From contig CALVAX010000010.1 of assembly GCA_944325605.1 (NCBI GenBank), positions 5,933 to 69,932 of the forward strand: 64,000 nucleotides of DNA, given 5' to 3'. Made by a program: the position numbers and the translations under genes. This document shows positions 2,549 through 64,000 of the stretch, piece by piece. The first letter of the stretch is position 1; each line of letters starts with the position of its first letter. This stretch comes from Candidatus Gastranaerophilales bacterium (GTDB taxonomy: Bacteria; Cyanobacteriota; Vampirovibrionia; Gastranaerophilales; Gastranaerophilaceae). Below the pieces are notes generated by a model that saw nothing but the letters and a program-made list of their open reading frames with translations, made no database searches and was not told the origin of the DNA.

Positions 2549-3635
2549 TTGCTGACTTCTCTCTTTTGCATTCACCGGAAAGCTCTTTTAGCTTTGTATA
2601 AAGATTAATTTCCTCATCAGTAAGACTGTCCGGAATTTGTATCTTAACAGTAACTATTATATCACCAACAAAATTATTTTTCTTAACACCTTGAGAAGAT
2701 ATTCTGAAAATTTGTCCGGATTTTGTCATAGGCGGAAGCGTAAGCTGAACATACCCGGACAATGACGGAACCTTGATATCCCCGCCGAGTACAGCCTCAA
2801 ACGGAGATATCAGCACTTCACAAATCAGATTATTTCCGTCAATTTTAAACGCGGAATCCGGCGTAACGGTAATTTTCAAATATAAATCACCGTTTTTACC
2901 GCCGTTTTCACCTTTTTTCCCCTCGCCTGACAGCCTGAGTTTTGTACCGCTTTTAACATTTTGCGGAATAGTTACATTAATCTTCTGATGATTTGTAATC
3001 TCTCCTTTGCCGTCACAATGCTGGCATTTTGAACCGTTAATAAACTTTCTGCCGCTGCAATACGGACAGACCTCAGTATTTATAACATTAACGGTTTTTT
3101 GCGTACCTGTAATCGACTCTTTTAGCGTTATTGACACATCTGTATAAATATCAGCCCCTTTTTTCGGAACAGATTTCTTCTCAGAAAATGCCTTTTTCTT
3201 CTTAGGCTTTTGCGAAAAACCGTCTATAATATCATTTATCAAATCGCAAAAAGGTTTATCCTCTGATTTTTTTTGAGTCTTGCTATTGAAATCCTGTGCA
3301 TTTTTGCTTTCTGATTTTTCAAAAGAATCACGTTTTATTGTATCTGATGAAGCTGAAGGATTTCTGTAACTTTTTCTGTACGGCTCGCTTTTAAACTTTT
3401 CACTGCTTCCGGAACTTTTAAAAAAGCCGTTTAAAGTATCATATTGCTTTCTTTTTGCCTCGTCACACAAAGTTTCATAGGCTTCCATAATATCCTTAAA
3501 CTTCATTTCTCCGTCCGGATTAACGTCAGGATGAAATTTTCTGACAAGACGCCTGTAAATACTCTTTAACTCTCCTGACTCCACGTCAGGAGTAACCCCT
3601 AAAATTTCATAGTAATTTTTGCTGCTCTTTAACAT
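2541..3635 (-). CDS. DnaJ-family co-chaperone, atypical (J domain, K/S-rich linker, single Zn centre)
   Basis: J domain YYEILGV...KFHPDVNP. Only two CxxCxGxG-type motifs (CPYCSGRK, CQHCDGKG). A C-terminal beta domain is present. No G/F region. Confidence 0.8.
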   Translation of the reverse strand: MLKSSKNYYEILGVTPDVESGELKSIYRRLVRKFHPDVNPDGEMKFKDIMEAYETLCDEAKRKQYDTLNGFFKSSGSSEKFKSEPYRKSYRNPSASSDTIKRDSFEKSESKNAQDFNSKTQKKSEDKPFCDLINDIIDGFSQKPKKKKAFSEKKSVPKKGADIYTDVSITLKESITGTQKTVNVINTEVCPYCSGRKFINGSKCQHCDGKGEITNHQKINVTIPQNVKSGTKLRLSGEGKKGENGGKNGDLYLKITVTPDSAFKIDGNNLICEVLISPFEAVLGGDIKVPSLSGYVQLTLPPMTKSGQIFRISSQGVKKNNFVGDIIVTVKIQIPDSLTDEEINLYTKLKELSGECKREKSAND

Positions 3636-3670
3636 ATAAAAATTTATAATGATGCTTGAAAAAATATCAA

Positions 3671-4924
3671 CTAATCCACAGATTTGCAGATATCTTTACG
3701 GTATTTCTTACCGCTAAAATTAATAACATCAACATTTTCATAGAGCAATTCCCTGGCTCGGGATAAAGTTGAGGCAGTTCTGGTAAGCACAACCGTCCTG
3801 CCGCCGGACGTAAGATATTCCATATATTCATTTCTTCTGGTATTAAAATGGTTTATATCCAGATCATCAGCCAGCTCCAGACCGGAAATTAGATTGTCCT
3901 TAAGTTTTCCGCTGGACAGAACACAGGATACAGAAGAATTTTCAGAAACATCTATAGCATCATAATCATCTGCAAAAGAACCGACAGCACAGGCTTCAAA
4001 AAGAGTATAAAGATTTTCATTAATTAAATTCAAAACTGCCTGACAATCGTGGTTTGCCAAAAATGGTTTTAACTCAAGAATTGTAAATTCGCCTGACGAA
4101 GTCAGAACACCTTCCACACCGAGAATTCCAAGATAAGGAGTCTCTTTTGAGGCAAGACTTGAAATAACAGGCTCGACAACTTCATACAAAATTCTATTCT
4201 GGATTTCGCAAGAGAGTTTGTAATCCGGACAATATCCGCCCATACCCGGAGTCAAAATTCCGCCATTGCCGTCAGACATAAATTTGTAATTTGCAAAAGT
4301 TGTAAGCGGAAGAAAATGATACCCGTCAGTAATTACATACATTATAAATTCATGCCCGTAAACAAAATCTTCCAATAATATTTTTTGAGCGCCGGAAACA
4401 AAAAGATCCTCCACAAACACAGAAGCCGTCTGAATATTGTTACAAACCTGCCTGTCTGCTCCTTCTGTACTTTCATCCGTTCTTATAACAACCGGAAACT
4501 CTGATTTTTTTAAATATTCAATGGCCGGCTGCTGTTTTTCAAAAATACCAAACTTCGGAGTAGGAATACGCAGTCTGTAAAAAAGTTTTTTGCCCGTCGA
4601 TTTTGAAATTGCAGGAAAAGCACTTGCTGCAGACGGGCCGAAAATCAACTGTCCGTTTGCCTGGAATAAAGATACAAGATCAGCCTTAACGGCACTTTCA
4701 TCAGAACAAATAGTCATATCAACCGCATTTTCCAGAACGAAATTTAACAATTCCGAAGTATTTTCCGGTCTGATATCAACACGCTCACAGAATTCACCCA
4801 TTGCATCATTTCCGGGAGCTGCGTATATTTTTTTTACAAATTCATACTTTGCAAAAACAGAGGCTAAAGCGTGTTCCTTTGCCGAACTTCCAACTATCAA
4901 TATTTTTTTATTCTCAAGAGCCAT
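3671..4924 (-). CDS. purD: phosphoribosylamine--glycine ligase (divergent)
   Basis: 417 aa. N-terminus ILIVGSSAKEHALA...APGN parallels the PurD GGREHAL...APGN. The length fits an ATP-grasp enzyme. Confidence 0.75.
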   Translation of the reverse strand: MALENKKILIVGSSAKEHALASVFAKYEFVKKIYAAPGNDAMGEFCERVDIRPENTSELLNFVLENAVDMTICSDESAVKADLVSLFQANGQLIFGPSAASAFPAISKSTGKKLFYRLRIPTPKFGIFEKQQPAIEYLKKSEFPVVIRTDESTEGADRQVCNNIQTASVFVEDLFVSGAQKILLEDFVYGHEFIMYVITDGYHFLPLTTFANYKFMSDGNGGILTPGMGGYCPDYKLSCEIQNRILYEVVEPVISSLASKETPYLGILGVEGVLTSSGEFTILELKPFLANHDCQAVLNLINENLYTLFEACAVGSFADDYDAIDVSENSSVSCVLSSGKLKDNLISGLELADDLDINHFNTRRNEYMEYLTSGGRTVVLTRTASTLSRARELLYENVDVINFSGKKYRKDICKSVD

Positions 4925-33141: not shown

Positions 33142-33244
33142 TTTACCACGGGTAGTCATCGCGGATTTCCCAGCCGTCGGTCATTATGAGAGCAGAGCAG
33201 AATGCGCCGTTGGTTTGTCCTGCTTGTTTACTGCAGCCGTAGCG

Positions 33245-33937
33245 TCACGCTGACTTTAGATACTCACGGTCAAATGTGTCATAAGCGTTTCCCATATCGC
33301 AGGTGCCTTTATATCCGTAAGGCACAAGTCCGTATTCCTGAGATATTGAAAACATAAACAAATCCCGACCAAACCTGTTTGGCTTCTTGTAGCCGTTCAA
33401 ATCAAGCACAATGTCAAAAGCCTTTCTTGTCATTGCTGTACTGCCACCTGTAATATAAAATGTCATTCCGTCGACCGTGCTTACAACTAAAGCATTTGAA
33501 TAAAATAGAGTAAAAGTATTCTCAACACTCCCGTTCGGGCGTGTGTATTGCACTTTATCCGAAATTTTGCCGTATGTTGTTTCATTTATTTTTGCAAAAT
33601 GAGGTTTTAAGTACTGGTTGAAAAAGTCCGCATTTGACTGATTAAAATTCCAGTATTTAACGCTTTCATTGTGAACTTCTGAAAGCTCAATTGCCTGCGC
33701 CATAACGGAATAGGCCTTCTTTAACCGGTTTATGGTTTCGGCTTTCTGGTACCCTTCAATTACGCCCGGAAGTGTCATAGCTGCAACTATTCCGATTATT
33801 CCGAGGGTAATCAGGACTTCCGCCATTGTGAAGGCCGCGTGTTTGGATTTTTTCCTGTCATTCTGAACGGAGTGAAGAATCCAATTACGTTTTAAGTGGA
33901 TCCTTCGCCTTTGGCTCAGGATGACGCTTAATTCCAT
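33245..33937 (-). CDS. prepilin-type (type IV pilin/pseudopilin-like) protein, copy 1, probably disrupted
   Basis: AFTMAEVLITLGIIGIVAAMTLPG class III signal. An in-frame TGA at 33245-33247 is followed by 33 more pilin-like codons to TAA 33143. The leader is not connectable to the upstream start. Confidence 0.7.
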   Translation of the reverse strand: MELSVILSQRRRIHLKRNWILHSVQNDRKKSKHAAFTMAEVLITLGIIGIVAAMTLPGVIEGYQKAETINRLKKAYSVMAQAIELSEVHNESVKYWNFNQSNADFFNQYLKPHFAKINETTYGKISDKVQYTRPNGSVENTFTLFYSNALVVSTVDGMTFYITGGSTAMTRKAFDIVLDLNGYKKPNRFGRDLFMFSISQEYGLVPYGYKGTCDMGNAYDTFDREYLKSA

Positions 33938-33982
33938 TACTTTCGGCTAAAACGCTTGAAGGAGCCTGATTATAGGTTGCCA

Positions 33983-33991
33983 CCCCCCCCC
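33983..33991 (-). repeat. homopolymeric tract (G9 then TGG on coding strand) in pilin-1 leader cassette
   Basis: 9 C on the plus strand. It is the interrupted version of the 12-mer tract at 51679-51690. Confidence 0.9.
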
Positions 33992-34060
33992 GTAAATTCA
34001 ATCATAGTACGGCTTTTCATACTCTTAGCTCCTTTGCTTTTTCACGTTCGTTACTCTTTT

Positions 34061-34089
34061 ATTTTAGCATGATTTTTTATGCTTTTCAA
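34061..34089 (-). promoter_or_regulatory. pilin-1 promoter
   Basis: The minus strand reads TTGAAA, 17 nt, (TGC)TAAAAT. AAGGAG and ATG 34020 follow downstream. Confidence 0.65.
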
Positions 34090-34128
34090 GGGAAGGGAAT
34101 TTTTTTGCGTGAAGGACTTTTCACACTT

Positions 34129-34218
34129 CCGCCCCATTTTGTCATGCTGAGTTTATCTCAGTATCTCAACGGGATTCTGAAACAAGTTCAGAATGACAGT
34201 GTAAGACAAAATGGGGCG
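34129..34218. mobile_element. MITE-like element E1, short form (90 bp)
   Basis: 14-bp perfect terminal inverted repeats CGCCCCATTTTGTC / GACAAAATGGGGCG. Confidence 0.7.
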
Positions 34219-34468
34219 ATTTCTTATCGCCTTTATTCCGAAACTAACCTTTCAACCTTTCACCCATTCCACTATTCAACTCTCCTCACGCTTCACGCTT
34301 CACTCTTCACTTTCCCGTCCGCCCCCTCACCCTGACCCTCAGCCATTCGGCATACAGTCTCACTCGGCTCGTTCCTCGCCGGTTCGAACTAGCATCCCAC
34401 AAGGGGAGATGGAAAATATTTTACTTAACAAACCTTTCAACTTTTCAACTATCTTCACTCTTCACTTT

Positions 34469-34644
34469 CGCCCCATTTTGTCATCCTGAGTTTGCGGATT
34501 TTCGGTAGGGTGAAGCAAAGCGGAACCCGTAAGGTGCGGGTCGGACGTTACTCCGCCCGCACCCCGAATAATCCAAGATAGTCTCAGTATCTCAACGGGA
34601 TTCTGAAACAAGTTCAGAATGACAGTGGTAGACAAAATGGGGCG
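34469..34644. mobile_element. MITE-like element E1, long form (176 bp) with nested 86-bp GC-rich insert (34494-34579)
   Basis: Same 14-bp TIRs. It matches 50223-50398 over the insert and most of the body, with differences only just inside the right TIR. Confidence 0.7.
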
Positions 34645-34724
34645 ATTTCTTACCGCATTTTTCTGAAACTAACCACTCAACTTTTCAACCATTCACCATT
34701 TCAACCCTCTTCACACCTCACTTT

Positions 34725-34830
34725 GTTAGAACCTGACTTACAAATCACCCACACCCGAAATTGTAAGTTCGCTAATGCTCACTAACAATTTCTTCCCTCT
34801 CCCCTCAAGGGAGAGGGGATTTATTTTACG
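34725..34830 (+). repeat. 106-bp palindromic module E3, copy a
   Basis: Identical to 35006-35111 and 52004-52109. It ends in the hairpin CCTCTCCC/GGGAGAGG followed by ATTTATTTT. Confidence 0.9.
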
Positions 34831-35005
34831 TAAAGAACTTTTCGTCTTATCGTCCTTACGTCTTTATTTAAAGTGAATAAGTGAATAGGTGATGAAGTGA
34901 ATAAGTTCTTTGCGGCGCTTCGCGCAAATTTTAATTAAACATTACGCACTTATTCACCTATTAATTTTCAACTCTCCTCACGCTTCACACCTCACCCCTC
35001 ACTCT

Positions 35006-35111
35006 GTTAGAACCTGACTTACAAATCACCCACACCCGAAATTGTAAGTTCGCTAATGCTCACTAACAATTTCTTCCCTCTCCCCTCAAGGGAGAGGGGA
35101 TTTATTTTACG
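35006..35111 (+). repeat. 106-bp palindromic module E3, copy b
   Basis: Identical to copy a. Confidence 0.9.
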
Positions 35112-35335
35112 AAACAAACCTTTCAACCATTCAACTTTTCAACTTTTCAACCTTTCAACTCTTCTCACGCTTCACACCTCACTCTGATAAAAACTTAACG
35201 CCATATCGCCTTGCAGTCTTATCGCCTTTTTTCGAAACAAACCACTCAACTTTTCAACCATTCACCCTTTCAACCCTCCTCTCTCTTCACTGAAAATGTT
35301 TTCATGGTAAAATTGCTGTCAAAAGGGGATTCGTG

Positions 35336-48024: not shown

Positions 48025-48681
48025 ATGGAAAACATAAACAGACACATCGAACATACTCTGCTGAAACAGGACGCAAAAGAAGAAGATTTTATAAAACTTT
48101 TTGAGGAAGCGAAAAAATATAACTTTCTCGGAGTTTGCGTTAACCCTATGTATGTAAGACTTGCTAAAGAAAACCTTAAAGACAGCCCCGTAAAAGTCGT
48201 AACAGTAGCAGGTTTTCCGCTCGGTGCAAACAGACCGGAAGTTAAAGCTTTTGAGACAAAACTTGCGATAGAAGACGGCGCAGATGAAATTGATATGGTT
48301 ATAAATGTTACAGCACTAAAAACCAAAGACTACGATTTTATCAAATATGATATTGAAACCGTAAAAGCTGCCTGCAAAAATCACCCGCTGAAAGTCATCT
48401 TAGAAACAGATTTGTTAACTAAAGACGAGATTAAAAAAGCGTGCGAACTCTGCATTGAAGCAAAAGCTGATTTTGTAAAAACATCAACAGGCTTTGTAAA
48501 AGGCGGTGTTGGCGCAAAGGCAGAAGACGTTGAATTGATGTATAAAACAGTATCCCCTTACGGCCTTAAAGTAAAAGCCTCGGGCGGAATAAGAGACAGA
48601 GAAACAGCAATAAAAATGCTTGAAGCAGGAGCAGAACGCCTCGGCACCAGCAGCGGAGTGAAGATTGTGGAAGGAAATTAA
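48025..48681 (+). CDS. deoC: deoxyribose-phosphate aldolase
   Basis: IEHTLLK, EIDMVIN, FVKTSTGF (Schiff-base Lys) and KASGGIR motifs. Confidence 0.95.
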   Translation: MENINRHIEHTLLKQDAKEEDFIKLFEEAKKYNFLGVCVNPMYVRLAKENLKDSPVKVVTVAGFPLGANRPEVKAFETKLAIEDGADEIDMVINVTALKTKDYDFIKYDIETVKAACKNHPLKVILETDLLTKDEIKKACELCIEAKADFVKTSTGFVKGGVGAKAEDVELMYKTVSPYGLKVKASGGIRDRETAIKMLEAGAERLGTSSGVKIVEGN

Positions 48682-48736
48682 CTGTTTTTATCTGCAAACA
48701 GAATGTTAAACAAATTCAAACGGTTTTGACATCTAT

Positions 48737-49463
48737 TTACGGAAGGCGGCTAAAAAAGTCTTTGTCATAAAGTGCTTTTATCGTGCATCCGCCGCCATTC
48801 ATATAATCGGTTGCAGTTGCGGAACATTTCATATTGCCCCAGCCTCTGTCAGGCATTTCACCTGAAGGAAATACACCGTCCTCATAGATAAGAAACATAA
48901 ACAAATCCTGTCCGAGTCGGTTTGGCCCTTTTTTGTAACCGTTTACATCAATACTTATACTCTTCGGGCAGGCTCCTATTGAGTTGACAAATATCATTGA
49001 ACCATCAGTCAAAATAAATTGCCCGTCGTCAAAACATTCCATATTGATATCAGTTGTTCCGGTAAAATTTTTATACGCCGGTCTGTTAATTGAAACACAT
49101 GCAGAGTCACGGTCATCGTACCCGAATCCGCAGTCAACAAGAACAGGCATATATTTCATAAGAGTTTCTTTAACCATATTTCCGTCTATATTATCATTTC
49201 TGGTAACAATACGTTCTCCTGTCAGTGCATAATGCATATCCAGCGCCTGATAAAGTCTTGAATAATTCTTTTTAAAAGCGGCTTCAAGCTGTTTGCCGCG
49301 TGCACGGTTTATTAACGACGGAAGCGTCATTGCGGCAACTAATCCGATTATTCCAATTGTAATCAGCACTTCCGCAAGTGTAAATCCTAAAAACCCGCTC
49401 AGAGGAAGTCTATGCGGCTGCCCCCCCCCCCCCTAAATCAGCTCTACAACTACGTTTCAGCAT
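48737..49463 (-). CDS. prepilin-type pilin-like protein, copy 2, frameshifted at a G13 tract (phase-variable candidate, OFF as sequenced)
   Basis: GAGGAGG RBS and ATG 49463 give MLKRSCRADLGGGG, then a frame break. With 12 G it continues QPHRLPLSGFLG|FTLAEVLITIGIIGLVAAMTLP. The span is 727 nt (3n+1). Confidence 0.75.
49421..49433 (-). repeat. homopolymeric G13 tract in pilin-2 leader
   Basis: 13 consecutive C on the plus strand. Confidence 0.95.
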
Positions 49464-49496
49464 TTTATCCTCCTCTGTTAGTTTTTCTTTAATTTT

Positions 49497-49525
49497 ATTT
49501 TAACAAATTTTTGTCACTTGTGCAA
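49497..49525 (-). promoter_or_regulatory. pilin-2 promoter
   Basis: The minus strand reads TTGCAC, 17 nt, (TGT)TAAAAT. Confidence 0.65.
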
Positions 49526-49577
49526 TATTTTATTTTTGGGACTTATATAGCAAATTCCAGAGATACAATAAAAGCCA

Positions 49578-49734
49578 GTCATTCTGAGGACTTTAGTCCG
49601 AAGAATCTTTTTTATTAAGATACTTAGCTAACGCTCAGTATGACATTCTTTTTCAAGTCATTCTGAAGGCGAAGCTCGAAGAATTTCCCCGCTTCCTGTA
49701 CGTCATTCTGAAGGAGCGAAGCGACTGAAGAATC
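49578..49734 (+). repeat. cluster of three REP-like units GTCATTCTGA-N-GAAGAATC
   Basis: Units at 49578-49607, 49657-49684 and 49702-49734. The last recurs exactly at 51548-51580. Confidence 0.85.
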
Positions 49735-50222
49735 TCCTTCTGTTTTTTATTTCGTCCTCCGGACGGGGGCACTCGCTTGGTTGCTCGCGTTATGCGGGTC
49801 TACGCTGCAAGGCTCATCGCCTTGACCGGCTCCGCCCTCTGCTCGCAATCCGCTTTGATGGCAAAGCGACGGAAACCAGCCGCACGCTTCGTTCTCTAAT
49901 AATTTGCTAGACTCGGCATTTTGGCGGGTAAACTCGCTGCGCTCACTAATCAATTGTAACCGTTTCAATTAAGCAAGTGAACTCGTGCTTCGCACTCAAA
50001 CAGCACTTGTTTTGAAGTTTTGAAACGGAACATTGATTGTTCGCTCCGCAATGGTCGGAGGGAAAATATTTTATGTAACGAACTTATCGTCTTAACGTCT
50101 TTTTTAAAGTGAATAAGTTCTTTTCGGCGCTCCGCGCTAGCTCCGCGCAAATTTTAATTAAACATTACGCACTTATTCACTTTGTTAAAATCGCCTTTCT
50201 CAACTCTCTTCACCCTCACTTT

Positions 50223-50398
50223 CGCCCCATTTTGTCATCCTGAGTTTGCGGATTTTCGGTAGGGTGAAGCAAAGCGGAACCCGTAAGGTGCGGGTCGGAC
50301 GTTACTCCGCCCGCACCCCGAATAATCCAAGATAGTCTCAGTATCTCAACGGGATTCTGAAACAAGTTCAGAATGACAGTGTAAGACAAAATGGGGCG
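50223..50398. mobile_element. MITE-like element E1, long form, second copy (nested insert 50248-50333)
   Basis: Same 14-bp TIRs. It matches 34469-34644 apart from differences just inside the right TIR. Confidence 0.7.
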
Positions 50399-50641
50399 CT
50401 GTCTTAACGTCCTAACATCTTTTATTCCAAAACAAACCCTTCAACTTTTCAACCCTCTTCACCCTTCACACTTCACGCCTCACTTTTTAGTCCGCCCCCT
50501 CTCCCTAGCCCACTCCCAGAGGGAGAGGGCAAAAATTTTACCGCATCACTAAGGTGTCAGTAATCAGAGATTCTCAGAACCTGCTAAAAACTACGCTTGA
50601 GATATAAATTTTTGTCTGACTGCCGGACAAGATTGCCGCTA

Positions 50642-51700
50642 TCAATCTTTAGAACCGTAAAAATAATCCATATTATCATAACGAATAATCCATTCGCCGC
50701 AGGTTCCGCCGTTACCTGTCGTAGCATTCTGATTTTTTTTCTTGCAGAACTTTTTTACATATTCATCGGTTCTGTTATAACCAACCGGAAAAATCCCTTT
50801 GTTAGTCGCAGCAAAAACGAAATGATCTTTTCCAAAATAATTTTTATTCTTCGGGTTACTGTTATTTGTAACAACAGCATAAATTATACCGCATTCATAA
50901 ATGGTTGTGGTATATGGATTCCCGTCATCATCAATATTTTCCTGATCGTATTCGCAACCCTGATGGACAGGATCAAGAATCATAAGAGAAAACCCGCCGT
51001 TCAAACGGATTTTCGGATAAATTTCCATATCATTCAACTCTCCCCAGCGATGCTCCCCGCTTAATGAAACAAACGAACCCTGAGATGTGCAGCCTTTTTT
51101 ATAATAGCATTTTTCAACAACATTCAGGTGCGGCTCCAGAATTTTTAACAAATCAGCTTCATCCTCAAGAATCCACGAATCCGGCGGGCCGCTTTCCATC
51201 ATCGCAAGATTGTATGCGTTTGCAAGAACCGAATACACTTTTTTGTATTTGGTTATAATAGCCTTTTCTTCATATCGTTTTGTAAGATTAGGAATAGTAA
51301 GGGCTGCGACAACTCCTATCAAGCCTAATGTAATCAGGACTTCCGCCATTGTGAAGGCTGAATGCCTTCTTTGCTTGTCATTCTGAACGGAGTGAAAAAT
51401 CCAGTTAGGTTTTAAGTGGATCCTTCGCCTTTGGCTCAGGATGACGTCCTTTTTTATGTCATTCTGAGGGTGGAAGCCCGAAGAATCTTCTTGTGCTGCC
51501 TTGTCATTCTGAAGGCAAAGCCCGAGGAATCCACTCGCACCCTGCACGTCATTCTGAAGGAGCGAAGCGACTGAAGAATCTTCTTGCTTTTTAATAAGAT
51601 CCTTCGCCTTTGGCTCAGGATGACGCTTAATTCCATTATTTTCGGCTAAAACGCTTGAAGGAGCCTGATTATAGGTTGCCCCCCCCCCCCGTAAATTCAA
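50642..51700 (-). CDS. prepilin-type pilin-like protein, copy 3, with about 115-codon repeat-built leader and G12 tract
   Basis: SAFTMAEVLITLGLIGVVAALTIPN class III signal. The ORF is open back to the G tract. The RBS-equipped ATG 51719 is out of frame by one nt (span 1078 = 3n+1). Confidence 0.75.
   Translation of the reverse strand: MNLRGGGATYNQAPSSVLAENNGIKRHPEPKAKDLIKKQEDSSVASLLQNDVQGASGFLGLCLQNDKAAQEDSSGFHPQNDIKKDVILSQRRRIHLKPNWIFHSVQNDKQRRHSAFTMAEVLITLGLIGVVAALTIPNLTKRYEEKAIITKYKKVYSVLANAYNLAMMESGPPDSWILEDEADLLKILEPHLNVVEKCYYKKGCTSQGSFVSLSGEHRWGELNDMEIYPKIRLNGGFSLMILDPVHQGCEYDQENIDDDGNPYTTTIYECGIIYAVVTNNSNPKNKNYFGKDHFVFAATNKGIFPVGYNRTDEYVKKFCKKKNQNATTGNGGTCGEWIIRYDNMDYFYGSKD
51377..51624. 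repeat. six REP-like units embedded in the pilin-3 leader-coding region
   Basis: Units at 51377-51402, 51418-51445, 51458-51487, 51503-51532, 51548-51580 and 51598-51624. Confidence 0.85.
51679..51690 (-). repeat. homopolymeric G12 tract in pilin-3 leader
   Basis: 12 consecutive C on the plus strand. Confidence 0.95.
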
Positions 51701-51759
51701 TCATAGTGCGGCTTTTCATACTCTTAGCTCCTTTGCTTTTTCACGTTCGTTACTCTTTT

Positions 51760-51788
51760 ATTTTAGCATGATTTTTTATGCTTTTCAA
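51760..51788 (-). promoter_or_regulatory. pilin-3 promoter (same sequence as the pilin-1 promoter)
   Basis: The minus strand reads TTGAAA, 17 nt, (TGC)TAAAAT. Confidence 0.65.
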
Positions 51789-51828
51789 GGGAAGGGAATT
51801 TTTTTGCGTGAAGGACTTTTCACACTTT

Positions 51829-51917
51829 CGCCCCATTTTGTCTTTCTCTGTCATCCTGAATTTATTTCAGGATCTCATCGGGATACTGAAACAAGTTCAG
51901 CATGACAAAATGGGGCG
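51829..51917. mobile_element. MITE-like element E1, short variant (89 bp)
   Basis: Same 14-bp TIRs with a divergent interior. Confidence 0.65.
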
Positions 51918-52003
51918 CTCCGTATCGCCTTTTTCTGAAACAAACCCTTCAACCTTTCAACTTTTCAACTCTTCAACCCTCCTCACCCTTCACGCCTCAC
52001 TTT

Positions 52004-52109
52004 GTTAGAACCTGACTTACAAATCACCCACACCCGAAATTGTAAGTTCGCTAATGCTCACTAACAATTTCTTCCCTCTCCCCTCAAGGGAGAGGGGATT
52101 TATTTTACG
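52004..52109 (+). repeat. 106-bp palindromic module E3, copy c
   Basis: Identical to 34725-34830 and 35006-35111. It is followed by the same 8-mer array and E5 module (52199-52244) as at 35112-35230. Confidence 0.9.
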
Positions 52110-52347
52110 AAACAAACCTTTCAACCATTCAACCTTTCAACCATTCAACTTTTCAACCTTTCAACTCTTCTCACTCTTCACCCTTCACCCCTCACTCTGA
52201 TAAAAACTTAACGCCCTATCGCCTTGCTGTCTTATCGCCTTTTTAAACGTAACGAACTTTTCGTCTTTACGTCCTGCGTCCTATCGTCCTATCGTCTTTC
52301 ACATATTTTTTTGACCATGGTATAATAATTATTAAGAAGGAAGCAGT

Positions 52348-53445
52348 ATGGGTGATGAAGATAAACAATTTGATGCGACGCCCAGAAAACTGGAACAGGC
52401 TCGCAAAGAAGGTCAGGTTGTAAAATCAAAAGATTTTTCAACTGCTATTTCTTTGCTCGTTTTGTTTACTGCAATTTACGGAGTTTCACCTTTTATATGG
52501 AATCAAATTACCCAGCTTTTTACGCTTATGTATGAGCAAATTCCGAATGCACATCTTGAAAAGATAGGTATGGCATATATTTTGATGATTACGATAAAAT
52601 GTGCCGCACTTATTATCGGGCCTATTCTATTTCTGGCCTGGCTTGTGGCAATTCTTGCGGATTTTATTCAGGTCGGCCCGCTTGTTGCGACAGCTCCTCT
52701 TATGCCGAAACTCGATAAACTTAACCCTACTAAATATTTCAAAAACATTATGTCCATAAAAACCCTCTTTGAACTTTTTAAGAATATAGTAAAAGTTGTG
52801 CTTCTGGGGTATATAGGCTGGACAGTATATATGGCGCATATTGAACATATTTTGATGCTTGCGGCTATTGACAACAATTTTGCTGTAATGATAGAGTTCG
52901 GAAAACTTGTTACTGAATTTATTTTCAAAGCCTGCATTGCGTTCCTTGTTATTGCCGCTGCCGACTACGGGGTTACTAAATGGAAGTTTCTGAAAGATCA
53001 GAAAATGTCTTTTAAAGAAATTAAAGATGAATATAAAAACACCGAAGGCGATCCAAACGTTAAAGCTGCTCTCAGACAAAGACGTATGCAGATGCTTCAA
53101 CGAGGAATGATGGATGCTGTTCCGGATGCTGATTTCGTCGTGACAAACCCTATTCACATTGCCTGCGCACTTAAATATAAAGCGGAAGAAATGGATTCTC
53201 CGATGCTTATTGCAAAAGGGACAGAGCTTATCGCAAAAAAAATTATTCAAATTGCAAAAGATCACAACATTCCGGTAATAGAAAATCCGCCGGTCGCAAG
53301 AGCCTTGTTTAAGATGGTCGATTTAAACAGGCAAATTCCGCCTGAATTGTACAAAGCTATTGCAGAAATTTTACTTTTTGTTTACAACTTGAAAAATAAT
53401 CAAAAGAGAAGTAGAATAGGTACAGAGCCTAATACTAGAAAATAA
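52348..53445 (+). CDS. flhB: flagellar export apparatus protein FlhB
   Basis: FDATPRKLEQARKEGQV N-terminus, 4 TM segments and the autocleavage site region VVTNPIHIACAL. TGGTATAAT at 52318-52326 and an AAGGAAG RBS lie upstream. Confidence 0.9.
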   Translation: MGDEDKQFDATPRKLEQARKEGQVVKSKDFSTAISLLVLFTAIYGVSPFIWNQITQLFTLMYEQIPNAHLEKIGMAYILMITIKCAALIIGPILFLAWLVAILADFIQVGPLVATAPLMPKLDKLNPTKYFKNIMSIKTLFELFKNIVKVVLLGYIGWTVYMAHIEHILMLAAIDNNFAVMIEFGKLVTEFIFKACIAFLVIAAADYGVTKWKFLKDQKMSFKEIKDEYKNTEGDPNVKAALRQRRMQMLQRGMMDAVPDADFVVTNPIHIACALKYKAEEMDSPMLIAKGTELIAKKIIQIAKDHNIPVIENPPVARALFKMVDLNRQIPPELYKAIAEILLFVYNLKNNQKRSRIGTEPNTRK

Positions 53446-53447
53446 TC

Positions 53448-54110
53448 ATGATTATGCAGGAAAAAAACAGACTACAAGAATACCTTGATATAGTAAGAAA
53501 AGTTGCAAAAGTCGAACACAGAAGAATACCGGCTCATATGGTTGAGTATGAAGAATTGTTGTCGATTGGTATTATTGCAGTACAGGCTCTTATCAAAAAC
53601 AAAACTCCGGAACAGCTTGCAAGATATAACATGGCCTATGTTGCAACCGCTGTCAGATGGGCAATCCGGAATGAACTTCGCATCCGATACAAATGGTATT
53701 CAATGAAACATAAAGCAGACGAAGAATTTGAACAGGATGAAGAAGTTGAAGGAATGGACATGCAAAAAGCAAAAGTCCGTGAAGCGGTGTATGAAACCGT
53801 TTTATCTATTGACGGACTTGCAGCTGCGGCCAGTGACAACGATTCTCCGTTTGATTTCTTAAAAGATCCGCACGCAAAACCTGATGAACAGGCAGAAATA
53901 GCCGAACTTGGCAGAATGATTCGTGCTGCAATTTCAAAACTTCCGCCAAAAGAAAGAACTGTTGTCGAATACAGGTTCTACAGGAATATGCAGGTAAAAG
54001 ACATAGCCACTCAGGTTGGACTTTCGCCTTCCAGAGTCACCCGTATAGTTCAATCATCGCTTAATTTCGTCAAAGAATATCTTAATAACCACGAACAGTA
54101 TGACTATTAA
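53448..54110 (+). CDS. fliA: sigma-70 family sigma factor, FliA/sigma-28-like
   Basis: Regions 2 and 4 are recognisable (VKDIATQVGLSPSRVTRIVQ HTH). It follows flhB directly. Confidence 0.7.
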   Translation: MIMQEKNRLQEYLDIVRKVAKVEHRRIPAHMVEYEELLSIGIIAVQALIKNKTPEQLARYNMAYVATAVRWAIRNELRIRYKWYSMKHKADEEFEQDEEVEGMDMQKAKVREAVYETVLSIDGLAAAASDNDSPFDFLKDPHAKPDEQAEIAELGRMIRAAISKLPPKERTVVEYRFYRNMQVKDIATQVGLSPSRVTRIVQSSLNFVKEYLNNHEQYDY

Positions 54111-57274: not shown

Positions 57275-58279
57275 TTGGAAAAAATAAAAATAAAACCGCT
57301 TACTAAAGAACAGTTACTTATTTCGGCAGACAGGCTGACCAGATTTAAAAATACCGAAGCTAAGTATCTTAGAGTTTTCAAGGATATAATAACCGGCAAT
57401 CTGATAACGCCAAAGTTCAAAAAACAACAGCTTGATGAAACAGATTATTGCCAGCTTAAAATTATGGCTGAAAACATAATCAATTACTCGCTTGAAATAT
57501 TAAATATCAACCCTGACGGAGATTATTTGATAAATCAGAGGCTTTATGACTACGAAAAATCAGTATTTAAAATTTCAGCACAAACAGAAAATCTTCTGCA
57601 AAACAAAATTAACTACAAGGGAATAACTAAACTTTTTTCCGGCAATGAGGTCAAAAATTTAAAATGGCTTGAAGCACTTGAAAATTCTCCGGATATAATA
57701 CAAACGAGAAAAGAAAAGTCACTTTTATTTCCTGTTGAAAAAGTAATAATTTGCGAAGGAATTACAGAAGAAACCCTTCTGCCTGTGTTTGCGGATATTT
57801 ACGGCTTCAACTTTGACAGAAACGGTATTCACATTATCTCTGCAGGCGGGAAAAATCAGGTTGTAAAAACTTATTATGAACTTGCCGAAAACCTTAAGAT
57901 ACCTATCTTTGTCCTTCTTGACAAGGATGCTTCGGATAATCTTTTATCAATAAAGGCAAGACAAAGAGAAATGGATAATGTTTATATACTGACAAGCGGT
58001 GAATTTGAGGATTTGCTGCCGGTTCCGCTTATTGAAAGGACTCTGGCGTACGCTTTTGAAAATATTTCGCTTGTCGATCTTGAATTTTTAAAACAAGAGA
58101 TGCCTAAAGTTAAAATTTTGGAAGAGATATTCAAAAACAGGGGGCTGCATGAGTTTAAAAAGTCAGAATTCGCAAACCTCGTAAAAATAAACATTAAAAG
58201 CAAAGAAGATTTATCTGATGAAATAATTAAGATACTGGAAATTTTGCAAGCAGGAACAAGCAAAAAGGAACTTGTGTAA
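57275..58279 (+). CDS. stand-alone OLD-family TOPRIM domain protein
   Basis: VIICEGITEETLLP (TOPRIM Glu), GGKNQV and IFVLLDKDA (DxD). TTG start with a GAAGGA RBS. No ATPase domain. Confidence 0.65.
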   Translation: MEKIKIKPLTKEQLLISADRLTRFKNTEAKYLRVFKDIITGNLITPKFKKQQLDETDYCQLKIMAENIINYSLEILNINPDGDYLINQRLYDYEKSVFKISAQTENLLQNKINYKGITKLFSGNEVKNLKWLEALENSPDIIQTRKEKSLLFPVEKVIICEGITEETLLPVFADIYGFNFDRNGIHIISAGGKNQVVKTYYELAENLKIPIFVLLDKDASDNLLSIKARQREMDNVYILTSGEFEDLLPVPLIERTLAYAFENISLVDLEFLKQEMPKVKILEEIFKNRGLHEFKKSEFANLVKINIKSKEDLSDEIIKILEILQAGTSKKELV

Positions 58280-63022: not shown

Positions 63023-64000
63023 CTATTGATAATCTCTGTCTTTGCCGGAACTTGTGCCGCGGAATACACCACGGAACATCTGGCTTAATTCATTCTTGTC
63101 ATCAGAATATTCAAGAGCAACATCTTCTGATATAAAGCCCTCATTATACAGATTATAAAGCGACATGTTCATTGTAATCATGTTGTTGAAAGAACCTTTA
63201 CGTACAAGATCATAGACATCTTCAAGCTTGTCTTTTTCTATAAAATCTTTAACTGTAGAAGTTACAACAAGAAGCTCGCAAGCCGGTCTGCGCCCCATAC
63301 CGTCTTGAAGCGGCACCAATCTCTGGGATACTGTTCCTCTTAAAATCTGTGCAATCTGTCCTCTGATATGAAGCCTGTCAGCAGGATCAAACATATTAAC
63401 AATTCGGTTTACGGTTTGAACAGCATCGTTAGTGTGAATAGTTGCAAACACTAAATGCCCTGTTTCTGCTGCTTTTAAGGCACTTACGACGGTTTCCCTG
63501 TCCCTGATTTCTCCGATAAAAATAACGTCCGGATCCTGTCTTAATGCATATTTTACACCTTCAGGGAAAGATGGCGTATCTATGCCTATTTGTCTTTGCG
63601 TAACTATAGATTTTCTGTTATTAAAAATAAACTCTACAGGATCTTCAATTGTAATAATATGTTTTGGATAGTTTTGATTTATATAGTCAACAAGAGAAGC
63701 AATAGTTGTTGATTTACCGCTTCCTGTCGGGCCTGTAATCAATACCAGCCCGTTGTTTAAAGTTGCAAACTGTTCAATAGCAAGAGGCAAATGAAGCTCT
63801 GAAACAGTTTTGATTTCATAAGGAATTGTTCTTATTACTAGAGAAAATCTGCCCAGTTGACGGCTCAAATTCACACGAAATCTTGAACATCCGGCAATTT
63901 CATAAGCAAAATCCAAATCATAAATATTATCAAGCATTGTATTGTTAATACTTGCAGGAAGCAACGCCCCGTAAGCTTCATCAATATCTGTCGCTGTTAA
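63023..64000 (-). CDS. pilT: type IV pilus retraction ATPase PilT (N-terminus beyond window)
   Basis: GLVLITGPTGSGKSTT, DPDVIFIGEIRD and HLVFATIHTNDAVQTVNRIV motifs. The frame is open to nt 64000. Confidence 0.9.
   Translation of the reverse strand, partial: LTATDIDEAYGALLPASINNTMLDNIYDLDFAYEIAGCSRFRVNLSRQLGRFSLVIRTIPYEIKTVSELHLPLAIEQFATLNNGLVLITGPTGSGKSTTIASLVDYINQNYPKHIITIEDPVEFIFNNRKSIVTQRQIGIDTPSFPEGVKYALRQDPDVIFIGEIRDRETVVSALKAAETGHLVFATIHTNDAVQTVNRIVNMFDPADRLHIRGQIAQILRGTVSQRLVPLQDGMGRRPACELLVVTSTVKDFIEKDKLEDVYDLVRKGSFNNMITMNMSLYNLYNEGFISEDVALEYSDDKNELSQMFRGVFRGTSSGKDRDYQ

Follow-up and report, generated by a model that had tools for sequence, protein, structure and literature searches.

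In Neisseria, a poly-G tract lies in the region of pilC that encodes the signal peptide. This locus, like the poly-G/C loci of Campylobacter, Helicobacter and Haemophilus, carries its tract a few codons into the open reading frame (ORF), and frameshifting there turns a surface or pilus-associated protein on or off. In the Neisseria opa family, CTCTT repeats are located in the leader-peptide coding region of each paralogue, and poly-C is mentioned for opc (PMC3960869). The opa genes form a multigene family of surface proteins in which every copy has its own promoter and start and switches on its own; a slippage repeat sits in the region encoding the cleaved leader, the number of repeat units decides which frame is read, and recombination swaps 5′ parts between copies (PMC3960869). 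A locus of similar design is found in Candidatus Gastranaerophilales bacterium, in a stretch of 64,000 nucleotides (contig CALVAX010000010.1, positions 5,933 to 69,932 of the forward strand) that is referred to here as the window and that contains three pilin-like genes (genes 1 to 3). Gene 3 is probably a slipped-strand contingency switch located in the coding region of a presumably cleaved leader, and one member of a large repertoire of genes that switch independently.

Judged by these traits, the closest analogue of the gene 3 locus is the opa family, and the poly-G of pilC is also close. Compared with opa, the repeat here is a homopolymer (G or C) rather than a pentamer, the leader is of class III type rather than a Sec signal peptide, the proteins are pilin-like rather than beta-barrels, the organism is a relative of the cyanobacteria that lives in the gut and is uncultured, and the leader can comprise 120-240 amino acids (aa) and consist of interspersed repeats. 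In pilC and the Campylobacter, Helicobacter and Haemophilus loci, the protein that is switched is an accessory protein or a glycosyltransferase and not a pilin-type subunit, and there is no long translated spacer. Gene 3 resembles canonical class III pilins in the motif [G/A]↓F-T-x-A-E (the arrow marks the predicted processing site), in the some 20 hydrophobic residues after it and Glu at +5, and in the predicted shape of a long N-terminal helix plus a beta-rich domain. It differs from them in a leader of 121 aa (243 aa in the homologues P0126 and P0129) that ends in Ala instead of 6-26 aa ending in Gly (PMC4471445), in a globular part that has no significant match in the PDB, and in the location of the genes, which are scattered among housekeeping genes and not gathered in a pilus operon.

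Gene 3 is read on the minus strand (Table 1). Codon 10 of the frame opened by ATG 51719 (MKSRTMIEFT) takes the first G of an exact run of 12 G, and the run starts 29 nt from the first base of that ATG, in the 5′ part of the coding region. G runs of at least 9 nt occur at three places in the window compared with 0.04 expected by chance (a >100-fold excess), and all three lie on the minus strand, 29-30 nt after an ATG equipped with a Shine-Dalgarno (SD) sequence and 5′ of a pilin-like gene. The long ORF (50642-51700) has 352 codons from its TTG and is in the +1 frame relative to ATG 51719. The distance from 51719 to 50642 is 1078 nt, or 3n+1, and therefore a tract of G11 or G14 joins this ATG to the pilin ORF. 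In the G11 product, the leader spans 121 aa and closes with ...RRHSA↓FTMAEV, and the mature part follows as A↓FTMAEVLITLGLIGVVAALTIPNL. The alternative in-frame starts are TTG 51700, GTG 51547 and ATG 51349 (Met+3 of the mature part), and none has a usable SD: an SD-like AAGG lies about 16 nt 5′ of ATG 51349, and TTG 51700 and GTG 51547 have none. The promoter sequence is found with the same letters 5′ of gene 1 and on orthologous contigs. A role of the tract as a promoter spacer, with transcriptional phase variation, was ruled out, as the tract is 29 nt 3′ of the start codon and the hexamers are upstream.

This anatomy agrees in most respects with the initial annotation of the locus. The promoter, AAGGAG, ATG 51719, MKSRTMIEFT and the G12 at 51679-51690 that it listed are all present on reading the minus strand; the frame of this ATG closes early as described, at the TAA 51671-51669 after 16 codons; and the frame arithmetic (pilin ORF in the +1 frame, 1078 nt, fusion by G11 or G14) comes out the same. 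The leader, said to be about 120 aa and to contain no ATG, measures 121 aa in the G11 product, and no in-frame ATG precedes the mature part. The annotation had also taken a TTG to be the only in-frame start: TTG 51700 is indeed in frame and lacks an SD, but it is not the sole candidate, as GTG 51547 and ATG 51349 share its frame.

Natural alleles of gene 3 fall on both sides of this switch. Tract lengths were drawn from ENA, NCBI and Logan contigs, and the cluster at 90% identity around gene 3 includes two in-frame proteins of 359 aa each, P0131 (MKSRTMIEFTGGGATYNQ...) and P0125 (MKSRTMIEFRGGGAAYNQ...). The product encoded by the in-frame alleles is MKSRTMIEFTGGGATYNQ…A↓FTMAEV, with the junction MKSRTMIEFT/RGGGA..., and the contigs of P0131 and P0125 are syntenic with the window (5′-nucleotidase, FliA, FlhB, gene 3, gene 2, DeoC). 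The gene is on in contig L001, which has TTTAC+G11, and in L002-L004, which have TTTA+G12 in place of TTTAC+G11 together with linked single-nucleotide polymorphisms (SNPs). Seven contigs are out of frame. Six of them have G12, namely the window, L006, L007, L008, L106 and L098, the last of which starts just 5′ of the tract and is scored as off on the assumption of the usual 5′ end; the seventh, L005, has G13 with one T fewer before the tract. The samples of origin are ERZ24773472 for L001, ERZ24773468 for L002, ERZ24773419 for L007 and ERZ24773432 for L106. Thus, G11, G12 and G13 are seen over 11 contigs whose mature genes are near-identical (1.3% polymorphic columns). The in-frame alleles occur in four assemblies with linked flanking SNPs (TTTAC to TTTAG, CAACC to CAGCC) and are therefore not random miscalls. 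The dependence of expression on tract length that the initial annotation proposed is supported by these in-frame and out-of-frame alleles at syntenic loci, and in place of the invariant tract that it had named as the contrary observation, three lengths are found across contigs. The cassette GTATGAAAAGCCGYACYATGATTGAATT was also looked for as an exact pattern in JGI metagenome contigs, with 0 matches.

Gene 2 varies in the same manner. With G12, it encodes MLKRSCRADLGGGGQPHRLPLSGFLG↓FTLAEV in a product of 241 aa and is on, and its off alleles (G10/G13 type) have been called as proteins of 210 aa. Its tract ranges from G10 to G13 across contigs, on and off alleles are each present on at least 10 fetched contigs, and the cluster table lists many more. 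The states of genes 3 and 2 combine freely, with on/off, off/on and off/off all seen. In sample ERZ24773419, an overlap of some 127 nt joins the end of contig L007 to the start of L112, with the gene 2 tract (G10 vs G12) as the sole difference, and contigs L098 and L107 begin at or inside the gene 3 tract. Such an overlap and such breaks at tracts are what mixed tract lengths among the reads would produce, and homopolymer error is also possible.

From the tract to the Phe codon, not one stop interrupts the pilin frame, compared with 10 and 4 in the other two frames. This stretch contains repeat arms of the types GTCATCCTGAGCC... and ...TTCAGAATGAC with a period of 45 nt, and repeats of this kind occur in the window almost only in three long intergenic fields that adjoin the pilin-like genes. 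The orthologues in other species mostly have a short leader (M..GGGGAPVNNAPEWILSG↓FTLAEV type), and the long leader is best read as a secondary insertion of interspersed repeats into a leader that normally has about 20-25 aa. The encoded leader is hydrophilic and basic (pI 9.6, GRAVY -0.86), and it is predicted to be disordered, with pLDDT <50 for residues 1-107 and no secondary structure in the AlphaFold2 (AF2) model; its predicted tryptic peptides include HPEPK, DVILSQR and IHLKPNWIFHSVQNDK. At the RNA level, the leader folds with z = -3.0. An Rfam scan of 48600-52400 with E up to 1 gave only two sub-threshold matches to miRNA models, and the leader matched no known RNA family. Leader hairpins acting as intrinsic terminators were ruled out by a scan of the minus strand, which found no terminator-like site in 51356-51700.

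Polymorphism is concentrated in the leader. Polymorphic columns make up 14.6% of the leader and 1.3% of the mature part (about 12-fold), and the changes in the leader are spread over all codon positions, with pN/pS of about 0.6-0.7 and none that creates a stop. The distance from ATG to Phe takes values of 364, 366/367, 412 and 748 nt; after correction for the tract, these lengths differ by -3, +45 and +381 nt, and all are stop-free. The amino-acid sequence of the leader thus appears to be nearly free to vary while the frame is kept. The 381-nt insert is homologous to intergenic DNA 5′ of gene 2 in the window, and P0126 and P0129 (L006, about 3340-3720) have a 243-aa open leader that runs through this inserted element. 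The intergenic counterpart (window 49747-49968, minus strand; translation ...ISERSEFTRQNAESSKLLENEACGWFPSLCHQS...) is in frame within the gene 3 leader of P0126/P0129. In P0007, P0135, P0014 (residues ~18-27), L022, L077, L086 and L058, the leaders hold a second, degenerate pilin N-terminus; these upstream copies read GFALELL... or FTLAEGATHV... and stand 5′ of the genuine A↓FTLAEV. The 5′ end of a short-leader gene seems to have been joined 5′ of another complete gene, and the DNA between seems to have become leader.

The same architecture recurs across the family. A set of 79 paralogues from GTDB genomes was scored for tracts, defined as G8+ within 900 nt or C7+ within 500 nt 5′ of the Phe codon. 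Poly-G was found in 23 of the 79 and poly-C in 11, and nearly all loci with a tract have the order SD, ATG, 27-35 nt, tract. In the Gastranaerophilales, this amounts to SD, ATG, about 10 codons, poly-G, an open leader and [A/G]↓FTLAEV. The pilin frame is open from the tract to Phe+1 in 20/23 loci, including stretches of 425, 308, 284, 175 and 172 nt, and the other two frames, which served as an internal control, are open in 1/23 each. These counts argue that ribosomes starting at the upstream ATG read on across tract and leader into the pilin-like domain. A second species provides P0135/L115, with SD, ATG, a G12 that is in frame and a repeat-laden leader of 172 aa. Together, such loci show long leaders to be a recurrent and tolerated state. 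The residue at -1 is Ala in 58 and Gly in 21 of the 79, and members that combine a short leader with a standard SD and ATG can have Ala there too (e.g., MIKRA↓FTMAEV). The initial annotation had regarded both the Ala and the very long leader as unusual: the length is indeed so, at 121 aa against a canonical 6-26 aa (PMC4471445), and Ala is unusual for class III signal peptides generally (PMC4471445) but not within this family. Phe-Thr and the Ala or Gly at -1 are conserved family-wide, and most members have Leu rather than Met at +3. The paralogues with poly-C (9-16 nt) are L030, L038, L041, L043, L045, L050, L054, L055, L058, L083 and L085, and some of them read ...GCPPPE... in the leader.

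Gene 1 shares its 5′ part with gene 3. In the window, part of its repeat array has been lost, stops are present in all three frames before the pilin, and a TGG-to-TGA nonsense codon at 33245-33247 removes the conserved C-terminus. As read here, gene 1 is a pseudogene that carries the 5′ cassette of gene 3. Its orthologues L093 and L094 are intact, with G12 and an open leader of 367 nt, and an in-frame allele (P0189) is known. The 5′ modules of genes 1 and 3 in the window have 3 differences over about 250 nt, and between intact alleles (L093 vs L007) the identity is 93-97% over a stretch that reaches from about -470 to +26, counted from the Phe codon; past +26, the DNA of the two genes is unrelated, and the proteins are about 32% identical. 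The module of about 0.5 kb (window ~51330-51830 and 33806-34130, minus strand; 93-99% identity) comprises the promoter, ATG, poly-G, repeat leader and first 26 nt of the mature part. Upstream it abuts an inverted repeat resembling a miniature inverted-repeat transposable element (MITE), and downstream it ends inside the conserved N-terminal coding stretch. This distribution suggests cassette transfer of the 5′ module by recombination. The short-leader gene with MIKRA↓FTMAEV was considered as an orthologue of gene 1 and ruled out, as it lies at a different locus (HTH-gene-PNPase) and is a close paralogue.

The intergenic fields packed with repeats (33940-35330, 49440-50640 and 51790-52340) are unusually long and adjoin the pilin-like genes. 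They contain arrays of 8-nt period, AACCTTTC on the plus strand (e.g., 35117-35164, 51943-51992 and 52115-52165), and MITE-like inverted repeats, CGCCCCATTTTGTC...GACAAAATGGGGCG, at 50223-50398 and 51829-51917. Hairpin repeats of the type GTCATYCTGA/TCAGAATGAC are present in the fields, and no Rfam family was found for them in the scanned 48600-52400.

The mature part of gene 3 has 396 homologues at E <=0.001, and at least 591 related stretches turned up when GTDB species genomes were scanned. All but a few of these stretches lie in metagenome-assembled genomes (MAGs) of Candidatus Gastranaerophilales, Melainabacteria or 'Vampirovibrio' from animal and human guts, among them records mislabelled as Brachyspira sp. 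or Clostridium sp. CAG. The N-terminal motif of gene 3, A↓FTMAEVLITLGLIGVVAALTIPNL, has Phe+1, Glu+5 and about 20 hydrophobic residues, and the AF2 model of the mature part (pLDDT 88.8) has an N-terminal helix of 53 residues followed by a beta-rich domain. Among hidden Markov models (HMMs) of prepilin N-termini, gene 1 passes TIGR02532 and PF07963, and gene 2 passes TIGR02532 only (PF07963 17.4 vs 21.2). Many homologues at 42-50% identity to gene 3 have been pre-annotated as DUF6613 (PF20318), whereas gene 3 itself gives no match to PF20318 at E <0.1 and gene 1, at 22.1 bits, is below the gathering threshold of 24.3 bits. Judged by these homologues, gene 3 is a divergent relative of DUF6613 and not a scored member.

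The three pilin-like genes lie among housekeeping and flagellar genes (FlhB, FliA, DeoC, MTHFR, RuvB, YibE/F). FlhB and FliA are directly 5′ of gene 3 on the opposite strand (52348-54110). The relative Gastranaerophilus termiticola has been reported to encode pilA, pilB, pilC, pilD and pilT (PMC5877343).

Table 1. Features of the gene 3 locus and other elements of the window (window coordinates).
Feature	Position	Strand	Details
Sigma-70-type promoter	51788-51760	-	TTGAAA-17-TAAAAT, upstream TG before the -10 hexamer; consensus scan, 10/12 matches
Shine-Dalgarno AAGGAG	51733-51728	-	Spacer to ATG 8 nt; read directly
ATG start, putative phase-variable frame	51719-51717	-	MKSRTMIEFT...; also opens the in-frame alleles P0131 and P0125 (359 aa)
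G12 homopolymer	51690-51679	-	Out of frame here; in frame if G11 or G14
TAA, off-state stop	51671-51669	-	Closes the 16-codon peptide MKSRTMIEFTGGGGNL
Leader-coding stretch, tract to Phe+1	51678-51356	-	Interspersed repeats of hairpin type, arranged as a mosaic; pilin frame free of stops
3′-most complete leader hairpin repeat	51445-51377	-	GTCATCCTGAGCCAAAGGCGAAGGATCC ... GGATTTTTCACTCCGTTCAGAATGAC
Mature pilin-like protein, 237 aa	51355-50645	-	Starts FTMAEVLITLGLIGVVAALTIPNL; class III-type N-terminus, Glu+5
TGA stop, pilin-like ORF	50644-50642	-	Read from the sequence
Gene 2, paralogue	48737-49463	-	ATG 49463; G13 tract 49421-49433, off; short classical leader
Gene 1, decayed paralogue	33145-34089	-	ATG 34020; interrupted tract G9TGG 33980-33991
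T2SSE-family secretion/pilus ATPase	63023-63964	-	At the window edge; only such filament-machine gene in the window
OLD-like TOPRIM-domain protein	57275-58279	+	Possible defence gene; side observation

In the proposed mechanism, the constitutive-looking promoter and the strong SD would drive translation from ATG 51719, and ten codons on, the length of the poly-G would set the frame for the ribosome. With G12, as sequenced, translation would end after 16 codons and the pilin-like protein would not be made. Slipped-strand mispairing at replication, to G11 or G14, would join the start to an ORF of 359 codons. The product would begin with a hydrophilic, basic, disordered leader of 121 aa, derived from translated interspersed hairpin repeats, and continue with A↓FTMAEV-LITLGLIGVVAALTIPNL, an N-terminus of class III type, and then with a pilin-like domain of 237 aa that is related to DUF6613. 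The hydrophobic helix would insert in the membrane and leave the leader in the cytoplasm, and a prepilin peptidase would presumably remove the leader after Ala-1. A leader that is cytoplasmic and removed would explain why insertions that keep the frame are tolerated. Related paralogues, each with its own tract, would switch independently and give a variable repertoire of surface proteins. For this lineage, we infer high-frequency reversible switching, synthesis of the protein, cleavage of its leader, surface display and a biological role.

Several observations weigh against gene 3 being such a switch or its product being a pilin. The tract lengths are short-read assembly consensus, runs of 10-13 G are error-prone and single lengths may be off by one; contigs also break repeatedly at the tracts, as runs of this length are hard for short-read assemblers. 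The differences between samples represent polymorphism rather than reversible switching within a clone. Among about 21 scorable GTDB loci (L010-L087), only one (L082) is in frame, compared with the one-third expected at random; the share is below one-third and therefore suggests that most copies are kept off. The open leader frame is not universally kept: it is closed in L009, by a 26-nt deletion in the 3′-most hairpin repeat (51377-51445), and in gene 1 of the window. Each repeat arm is open in 2/3 frames, and the openness of the gene 3 leader would arise by chance with a probability of roughly a few percent. At the protein level, gene 3 falls just below the cut-offs of the prepilin HMMs (TIGR02532, 15.4 vs 16.3; PF07963, 18.6 vs 21.2), and a Foldseek search of the mature-domain model against the PDB found no match at E <=0.001 and tied it to no solved pilin. 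The 121-aa leader ending in Ala fails the canonical class III feature (6-26 aa with a Gly end; PMC4471445), and the protein is therefore called pilin-like and not a proven pilin. Ala at -1 is a residue after which PilD can cleave; a literature search for a source on this point found no primary paper.

These observations can be given other explanations, each of which was weighed against the allele and family data. One holds that gene 3 is a dead or dying gene in which a repeat insertion ruined a short leader, G12 is a fixed frameshift and the variation is homopolymer or assembly error. Gene 1, in the same window and with the same cassette, is clearly a pseudogene; the repeat arms are open in two of three frames, which makes openness over about 108 codons only moderately unlikely by chance; short-read assemblers handle runs of 10-13 G poorly, and contigs end at the tract; and few of the family loci in reference genomes are in frame. 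Error or decay would hardly yield in-frame alleles in four independent assemblies with linked SNPs, however, nor three independent indels (-3, +45 and +381 nt) that all preserve the frame. The mature part is nearly invariant next to a leader that is 12-fold more variable, the same architecture with a strong open-frame bias is found across species, and gene 2 has on and off alleles on at least 10 contigs each, all of which leaves a dead gene with a slim chance of being the right explanation. The chance is slimmer still that the pilin-like protein is made by internal initiation, from ATG 51349 (MAEVLITLG...) or another internal codon, and that the upstream parts are vestigial or a regulatory upstream ORF. 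Gene callers do start P0122, P0123, P0128, P0010 and P0013 at MAEV, AFTMAEV supplies an in-frame ATG, and gene 1 of the window, like L009, keeps its N-terminal coding stretch intact although no relevant frame of its leader is open. The AAGG is too far from ATG 51349 (about 16 nt) to act as its SD, though, and TTG 51700 and GTG 51547 have none. Moreover, Phe-Thr and the Ala or Gly at -1 are conserved 5′ of ATG 51349, where most members have Leu at +3, and internal initiation would not need a frame that is open from tract to pilin in 20/23 loci against 1/23 in the controls. The closed leader of gene 1 reflects a dead gene, as this copy has been separately decayed by a nonsense codon.

In other bacteria, long homopolymers are known to cause slippage during transcription. 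Slippage of RNA polymerase or the ribosome on G12 could give some product from off alleles, with the tract tuning the level of expression, and some leakage from off alleles would make the strong excess of out-of-frame reference alleles (20/21) less costly. DNA alleles are found in all three frame classes (G11, G12 and G13), as slippage at the DNA level predicts, and leaky reading would modify the proposed switch without excluding it; leakiness as the main mode of control is the least likely of the alternatives. A slipped-strand switch in the leader-coding region is thus the preferred interpretation of gene 3.

The kind of mechanism proposed here is already known, whereas the lineage, the gene family, the long leader of translated repeats and the shared 5′ cassette appear to be new. 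Literature searches on Gastranaerophilales or Melainabacteria with pilin, phase variation or homopolymer, and on DUF6613, returned nothing that describes this system. A broader reading, credible if not quite probable as a whole, joins these elements into an Opa-like switching repertoire with an insertion-tolerant cleaved leader and a mobile 5′ module, which among the papers searched would be the first contingency-locus system in the cyanobacterial lineage. About 40% of several hundred detected paralogues would then carry poly-G or poly-C in the leader-coding region. Hairpin repeats and former intergenic DNA would be translated into disordered leaders of 120-240 aa, which would exceed every class III leader so far described by a factor of about five to ten and be removed by prepilin peptidase. 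The module of promoter, ATG, poly-G and leader (0.5 kb) would have moved between non-orthologous pilin genes, and the route proposed for it is recombination between the upstream repeats and the conserved N-terminal coding stretch.

In practical terms, these genes are given wrong starts (TTG, GTG or MAEV) or cut short by gene callers, and assemblers break contigs at their tracts. The long leaders raise the question of how long and how arbitrary a prepilin leader may be, with Ala at -1, and still be processed, and they present a case of interspersed repeats absorbed into coding sequence where the product would be discarded. The gut Melainabacteria are uncultured, and little is known of their dealings with the host and with phages. 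If the interpretation is true, tract length would be a marker that can be read from existing metagenomic reads, and the Melainabacteria would use the contingency-locus strategy of Neisseria, Campylobacter and Helicobacter.

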